Shown one piece after another: positions 45,001 through 46,614 of a DNA stretch of 46,614 nt. Made by a program: the position numbers. The DNA is from a virus (lineage: Duplodnaviria > Heunggongvirae > Uroviricota > Caudoviricetes). Where the stretch lies: the IMG/VR virus record IMGVR_UViG_2713896798_000017; one strand, 5' to 3'. The stretch's first letter is position 1, and every line of letters starts with the position of its first letter.

Positions 45001-46614
45001 TGGGAGCTGATAGACAACAGCCAGCTTGCGGATGAGATGGCGGAGATGAAGACCACCATCACCGAAACCCGCAATGAAATCACACAGACGGTCAGTAAAA
45101 CGCTGGAAGACCAGAGCGCCACCATTCAGCAGATACAGCGCGTGCAGAAGGACACAAATGATGACCTTGCTGCACTTTACATGCTGAAGGTACAGAAAAC
45201 AAAAAATGGCATACCCTATGTTGCCGGTATTGGAGCGGGGATTGAGGATACTGATGGCCAGCCCCTGAGCAACATACTGCTGCTGGCTGACCGTATCGCG
45301 ATGATAAATCCGGAGAGCGGCAACAGCACGCCGTTATTTGTGGCGCAGGGGAATCAGCTGTTCATGAACGACGTGTTCCTGAAGCGGCTGTTTGCGGTGA
45401 GTATCACGTCATCCGGCAACCCCCCGGCGTTTTCCCTGACGCCGGAAGGGAAGCTGACAGCCAGGAACGCGGATATCAGCGGAGCAATTACCGCGAATAC
45501 CGGCACGCTCAATAATGTCACCATTAACGAGAACTGTGTCATCAGAGGGAAACTGTCTGCAAACCAGATTGAAGGCGACCTGGTGAAGACGGTGGGGAAA
45601 GCCTTTCCCCGGAATAACAGTTTATGCCAGCGGGACGGTAACCGTCACAGTTTACGATGACCAGGGCTTCGACCGGCAGATTATCATTCCCCCGGTGCTG
45701 TTTCGCGGGACGAAACACCAGAATTTCAACAGCCCGAATCAGCAGTCGTACTGGTATTCCACCTGTAAGCTGCAGGTGCTGAAGAACGGGGTTGAGATTT
45801 CCATGAACCGGCAACGGATGTCAGCCGGTGTTCTCATCGCGGTGATAGATATGCCGGCAGGGCGGGGTCATGTCACCCTGACGTTTAATGTGTCGTCGGC
45901 CGGTGCGAACAACTGGACGCCGACAACGTACATCAGTGATTTACTGGTTGTGGTCATGAAAAAATCCACTGCAGGGATCAGTATCAGCTGACGGTTTATT
46001 AACCCGGACGGGCACCTCAGGAGGTGCCTTTTTTATTGACTGAAAACAAAGAGGTAATCATGCGGCATTTATACGCAACGATATTATTGTTTACTACCCT
46101 GCTGGCAGGAATTGCCTTTCCTGCACAGGCTGAAAGCGGACACGGTGCATTTTCCGTGGGATATGCTCAGGTTCACCCGGGCGGCGTACCGGCATTGTCC
46201 GGTACCGGTGCGCGTGCAGGTGATTTAAAAGGGATTAACGTGAAATACCGTTATGAGTTCACGATCACCTGGGCGGCATTGTCGCGCTGAGTTATGCATC
46301 GGTGAAGAAAAGTGACACGATGAAGACGGGTGAAAATACCTTCCATTATGAAAGCCTGCGCGGTCGTTATGTCAGTCTGATGGCCGGCCCTGTCTGGCAG
46401 TTCAGTGAGCGGGTCAGTCTATGGCATGGCCGGGATGGCGTACACCCGCTGGTCTGACAGTGTTCAGGATTACCGGCGTGATGAAGTGAAACCGGGGTAT
46501 GTGAAGGAGACCACCACCGCCAGTGATGGTCATACTGCGCGTCATCTGTCGCCGGCCTGGAATGCCGGGATTCAGTTCAGTCCCGTAGAGACGGTGGTTA
46601 TTGACCTTGCTTAT

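Follow-up and report, generated by a model that had tools for sequence, protein, structure and literature searches.

The DNA analyzed here (hereafter the window) is the 46,614-nt virus record IMGVR_UViG_2713896798_000017 (Caudoviricetes), read 5' to 3' on one strand. The whole window is a lambdoid prophage, which in relatives adjoins yccA, and its right end carries the tail-tip gene J followed by lom, a gene of the Ail/Lom family of outer-membrane beta-barrels, both of which are interrupted by frameshifts (Table 1). With J ending at 45991 and lom starting at 46060, lom occupies the position that it has in lambda-type phages, the downstream tail-fiber side of this arrangement being seen in relatives only. 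The window breaks off inside lom, after a complete codon in the lom frame and 69 nt short of the reference stop, and the C-terminal ...GYKF of the reference Lom protein lies beyond its last base.

Table 1. Genes, indels and signals at the J-lom end of the window (ORF, open reading frame)
Feature	Position	Strand	Basis
J, tail-tip attachment/host-specificity gene, 3,477 nt in relatives	42514..45991	+	gpJ annotation in relatives
+T (TT -> TTT) in J, giving a stop at 45658-45660	45621	+	same gap against four independent references
-T (TTTT -> TTT) in J	45798	+	alignment to references
-G (GGG -> GG) in J	45829	+	alignment to references
+CG (CG -> CGCG) in J	45838-45839	+	alignment to references
Terminator-like GC-rich hairpin with T-run, between the J stop and lom	46010..46037	+	consensus scan; shuffled sequences also give one hit
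lom, Ail/Lom-family outer-membrane beta-barrel gene	46060..46614	+	first 555 nt present
1-nt deletion in lom, CACGGATC -> CACGATC, after codon 68, frame -1	46263	+	alignment to intact alleles
Premature TGA in the original lom frame	46288..46290	+	translation, ORF list
2-nt deletion in lom, CAGTCTCTATGG -> CAGTCTATGG, codons 120-121, original frame regained	46418..46419	+	alignment

Three-frame translation of lom yielded three Lom-like segments: the first runs in the frame of the ATG at 46060 to ...KYRYEFT at codon 68, about position 46263 (also read ...KGINVKYRYEFT), the second in the frame of 46062 (DHLGGIVALSYASVKKSDTMKTGENTFHYESLRGRYVSLMAGPVWQFSERVS) to about 46418, and the third again in the frame of 46060 (VYGMAGMAYTRW...DLAY; VYGMAGMAYTRWSDS...VVIDLAY) to the last base of the window. 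The original prediction, made from the DNA alone, had described lom as passing from one frame into a shifted frame and back, with an early stop on the way; the translation and the list of ORFs agree with it on both counts. Alignment to intact alleles, the check that it had proposed, pinpointed both lesions. The first is the 1-nt deletion that had been expected, the loss of one G (GG -> G), and the second is the loss of TC (TCTC -> TC), not a 1-nt insertion. The two events lie 155 nt apart and sum to -3, and to this extent the second is the "compensating" indel of the prediction, as the original frame is regained. Four stops in that frame lie between the two deletions, however (the TGA of Table 1 and three more), so that the second indel rescues nothing and the compensation is without function; a return to frame is not beyond chance, being expected of about 1 in 3 indels of +/-1 or +/-2 nt. 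As written, lom encodes a 76-aa product, consisting of 68 native residues and 8 missense residues, which is too short for a barrel.

The identity of the gene was assessed by a megablast search with 45990-46614 (625 nt) against 5,426 complete E. coli genomes. The region was present in 406 of them, the best match reaching 99.5% identity (625 query and 628 record bases), and the best phage records reached 99.2%; none of the complete E. coli genomes and phage records exceeded 99.5% over the query, the value that three gap columns give. In a three-way alignment of the window, E. coli O103:H2 12009 and the Stx2a phage Stx2_95, the 625 nt equaled the O103:H2 12009 allele at every base save the missing G and TC, and with these restored the translation of the 186 codons present agreed 100% with WP_001435161.1 (207 aa). 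The reference protein, equivalent to the repaired one, matched the Pfam profile PF06316 (Ail_Lom, gathering score 23 bits) from end to end with 168.7 bits (E = 1.7e-49), and the three pieces encoded in the window scored 33.1, 23.5 and 41.5 bits at profile positions 1-63, 61-112 and 114-178, respectively. The N-terminus as translated (MRHLYATILLFTTLLAGIAFPAQA/ES) has a hydrophobic core and an AxA motif and is a putative Sec signal peptide. An Ail/Lom protein is expected from a single ORF of about 200 aa with a signal peptide, a complete barrel and an aromatic end; lom as written offers no such ORF, because three bases are missing and for no other reason. Judged by its profile score and its position after J, lom is an ordinary O103/Stx-phage-type lom of the Ail/Lom family, with no new biology.

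The prediction had also placed indels in J, and four were found there. They split J into ORFs at 42514..45660 (1048 aa) and 45695..45991 (98 aa), which leaves the first of them with 1048 of the 1158 aa of J; the receptor-binding C-terminus is recoverable in pieces from three frames. The J indels belong to the same cluster as those in lom and most likely share their cause. All six indels were identical against four independent references (strain SCPM-O-B-7615, O103:H2 12009, phage Stx2_95 and E. coli E110019) and lie within the last 994 nt, packed into 800 nt (45621-46418), the chance of six events all falling in the last 994 of 46,614 nt being 9e-11. Compared with O103:H2 12009, the 1,044 nt from 45571 to 46614 contain six indels and no substitutions. 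Each of the six adds a unit to, or removes one from, a 1- or 2-nt repeat, an outcome with a chance of 5e-4 when events of the same sizes are placed at random in this sequence, which makes randomly placed (synthetic-like) indels unlikely.

To the left of the cluster the picture was different. A scan of the 25-mers of the window against the union of seven references returned as private variants a single-nucleotide polymorphism at 7244, the insertion of an IS2 element, differences in a mosaic patch and the six terminal indels, and none in 18706-40607 and 43426-45598. No private frameshifting indel was seen in the other 45.6 kb, IS2 included, or, within it, in the rest of the right arm (terminase through tail genes; about 24 kb of other late genes). 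Relative to the closest complete genome, that of strain SCPM-O-B-7615, blastn aligned 1-5506 at 100% identity, 5503-17351 with 1 mismatch and 0 gaps, and 18682-46614 at 99.45% identity, with a 1.3-kb insertion in the window at 17352-18681; the gaps in the right arm fell at two small sites at about 41.3-41.7 kb and at the six sites in 45621-46418. Indel errors spread over the whole assembly were rejected on these grounds, as 1-17351 has no gaps and 18706-40607 and 43426-45598 have no private variants. An indel that had been predicted in an early-left gene was not found, with 1-17351 gap-free against a complete genome and both int (1..1020, minus strand) and the exonuclease gene (1308..3779, minus strand) open.

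The indels were likewise absent from other collections. Exact 30-mers across either deleted lom junction had no match in viral, genome and metagenome contig collections, and neither junction is present in the 5,426 complete E. coli genomes, whereas the intact junction was found in 58 IMG/VR viral contigs. A look-up of the truncated products (76, 88 and 51 aa, plus the 1048-aa J) among called genes found none of them. We then compared the 1,053-nt J-lom stretch with 64 other copies, comprising the 58 IMG/VR contigs and fetched genome loci. These copies showed 670 mismatches and 20 gap openings, or about 33 substitutions per gap opening, and most of the 20 openings trace to a single A-run polymorphism that copies share in the spacer between J and lom. 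The window, by contrast, showed 6 gap openings to 1 mismatch (Fisher P = 1e-8), a P value that is only a guide given that the 64 copies are mutually related, although the contrast is large. A naturally decaying pseudogene would be expected to carry inherited indels at a neutral ratio to substitutions; here the indels are private and stand six against zero substitutions. Changes that are indel-only, set in short repeats, localized and absent from independent assemblies are the marks of an indel artefact, and all of these were present. The indels exist, are private, free of accompanying substitutions, clustered and of slippage type, and their repair gives a known protein exactly.

We consider it probable that the lom frameshifts are technical indel errors, made in base-calling, consensus building or assembly and limited to the final ~1 kb of the record. 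Six indels crowded into the end of a record, with not one substitution among them, look like consensus errors and unlike natural decay, and we infer that they arose in sequencing and not in the cell. The systematic indel errors suggested by the prediction are thereby the best fit in kind but not in extent, since they are limited to 45621-46418 and do not run through the assembly. The end of the record is probably a contig end inside the prophage, where thinly or ambiguously covered sequence could have led to consensus errors. The edges of the window fit this, as base 1 coincides with the int stop codon and the last base with a lom codon boundary, short of the tail-fiber genes that come after lom in every relative; the provirus would have been cut at gene edges, with the contig end at 46614 as its right edge. 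The real gene would most likely be the intact 624-nt lom, identical to the O103:H2 12009 allele (WP_001435161.1), and its product would be a signal-peptide-bearing beta-barrel of the Ail/Lom family placed by the prophage in the outer membrane of its host. Short homopolymer indels are the main error type of long reads, fragmenting genes and creating false pseudogenes (PMC12007338).

Several points weigh against an origin in sequencing. Two of the six events involve dinucleotide units and are not classic homopolymer miscalls; the longest run of the stretch (T6 near 46030) is unaffected, with no clear dependence on run length; and no indel falls in the final 196 nt of the window, so that errors do not simply rise toward the end. 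Five IMG/VR contigs (L034, L016, L042, L050 and L062) have private indels of their own in the J-lom stretch. Moreover, changes of this kind also result from replication slippage in the cell, and all six events are of slippage type in short repeats, as they would be if the 3' end of J and lom had really been inactivated in the cell by slippage during decay of the prophage, leaving a 76-aa Lom fragment and a J without its receptor-binding C-terminus. The prophage does have one real structural lesion, the IS2 at 17352-18682, the Prokaryotic Genome Annotation Pipeline (PGAP) marks "frameshifted" genes in related prophages, and E. coli strains of this sort often carry defective lambdoid prophages. 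Even so, we regard real decay as unlikely. Six indels without a substitution in 1,044 nt contrast with the natural rate of about 33 substitutions per gap opening, the events are gathered within 800 nt at the end of the record while the ~24 kb of other late genes are spared, and no other public sequence searched has any of the six. Past the first stop there would be no selection for an indel that restores the frame, and many independent neutral hits would be needed in very little time. Active pseudogenization of the right arm, the other possibility raised by the prediction, is for the same reasons a poor fit. That all six indels are real but arose together, in a local indel-only mutation burst at the J-lom junction of a resident prophage, is highly improbable; such a burst could have come from error-prone repair synthesis, for instance beside a break, an IS insertion or a recombination junction just past the window end, and would have disabled the tail-tip receptor-binding domain and Lom at once.

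A different kind of error would be residual long-read indels in a repeat beyond the reach of short-read polishing, the 3' end of J and lom being present in several prophages per genome; in that case 46614 could lie inside a contig, with the error-rich stretch possibly running on past the window. Genomes of relatives have up to 5 copies of the J-lom allele (4 in the closest strain), and the error-rich part starts roughly where the window turns identical to the widespread O103-type allele. IS2, however, is far more abundant, in up to 41 places per genome, yet the copy in the window aligns gap-free to another copy, and the window is also clean in other prophage modules that are widely shared. This weakened account, which we think very unlikely, is a variant of the error explanation and not a biological alternative; with it included, an error of one kind or the other appears clearly likely. 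Programmed ribosomal frameshifting at both lom sites, by which a full-length Lom would still be made, is in keeping with the net change of -3 and the return of the downstream part to the original frame, but all homologues examined have the extra bases and a single unbroken ORF, neither CACGATC nor CAGTCTATG contains a slippery heptamer of the form X XXY YYZ, and a lom-specific signal would leave the four similar private indels in the adjacent J unexplained, so that we find it hardly credible.

The closest known counterpart is the gene for WP_001435161.1 in the O103:H2 12009 prophage (NC_013353.1, 2288377-2289000; strain PE164 has the same protein), which has the same DNA at all aligned bases and the same context, directly 3' of J behind a terminator-like hairpin. 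Relative to it, the window lacks one G and one TC and hence encodes the 76-aa fragment, and the last 69 nt of the gene and the tail-fiber genes are outside the window. Among solved structures, lambda Lom (PDB 9wso chain C, 206 aa) is the closest, with a full-length match (E = 1.6e-81); it belongs to the same family, PF06316, and occupies the same place between J and the side tail fiber genes, but its allele has diverged, with many substitutions that fall within the signal peptide and internal segments, and lambda lom is intact. Published work describes Lom as a beta-barrel made in lysogens, equipped with a signal peptide and inserted into the outer membrane of the host (PMC12309495). Two small outer-membrane beta-barrels from the same superfamily, Yersinia Ail (PDB 3qra) and E. 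coli OmpX (PDB 1qj8), matched with E values from 5e-13 to 6e-12. They differ from Lom in being chromosomal and not prophage morons, in their shorter length (148-157 aa) and in being only distantly similar. The solved Ail and OmpX barrels are 8-stranded. As for the lesions themselves, the false pseudogenes of long-read or low-coverage assemblies at which Kastor is aimed (PMC12007338) are likewise genes, intact in close relatives, that short-repeat indels have fragmented; those cases are spread over an assembly, unlike the errors considered here, which occupy only ~1 kb at the end of the record.

For users of the record, 45600-46614 should carry a data-quality flag: the interval is unfit for calling J or lom pseudogenes, for judging the viability of the prophage and for counting Lom-family virulence or adhesion genes. 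The ratio of indels to substitutions against many copies of the same allele, together with the location of private variants, offers a cheap, read-free test of error versus decay. If the indels are real, the prophage would be tail-defective and without Lom, an ordinary outcome for a resident lambdoid prophage.

Among the other copies of the J-lom stretch, contig L034 has three 1-nt insertions within 22 nt (about 1487-1510, net +3), contigs L042, L050 and L062 have lom frameshifts, and contig L045 has a 48-nt in-frame lom deletion. In two sister prophages from complete genomes, RefSeq gives the label "frameshifted" to the terminase large subunit gene of strain PE164 (L004, 5406-7333) and to the head-tail joining gene (L006, 12491-12843) and J (L006, 21192-24667) of strain 95-3192.

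The IS2 is a complete, 1,331-bp member of the IS3 family at 17352-18682, with the ends TAGACTGGCCCCC... and ...GGGGCAAATCCA, and extends to 18687 when its 5-bp target duplication is counted. Its site is intergenic, with the Q/CPBP-protease region on one side and a helix-turn-helix gene, the tRNA genes and the late genes on the other, and the insertion may be polar on late transcription. A junction search of complete E. coli genomes found none with an IS2 at the same site. At about 5503-5506, strain SCPM-O-B-7615 has an IS5/ISKpn26 insertion that is absent from the window, so that each prophage copy has its own private IS.

The mosaic patch at 40600-42900 covers the end of the C40 peptidase gene, the tail-assembly gene, sodC and the 5' end of J, and is about 96% identical to most relatives and 99% identical to E. 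coli E110019, which may be taken as a sign of recombination between lambdoid prophages. Its differences are substitution-rich, the sole unmatched indels being at 41663-41667, just past the stop of the tail-assembly gene at 41660. The indels at 41336/41340 and 41663-41667, which show up against the first reference used, were considered as further private lesions and set aside as natural variation, as against E110019 they either vanish or become part of an intergenic substitution-rich patch.

Three phage tRNA genes lie at 19482-19731, with a CAT anticodon (tRNA-Ile in the annotation of relatives), Arg-TCG and Arg-TCT, upstream of a SASA esterase gene. This is the place of stx in Stx phages, and the annotation of the closest relative has no stx between the tRNA genes and the SASA esterase gene. 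Between the tail-assembly gene and J, sodC (Cu/Zn superoxide dismutase, 41853-42380, minus strand) forms a reverse-oriented moron, as it does in relatives.
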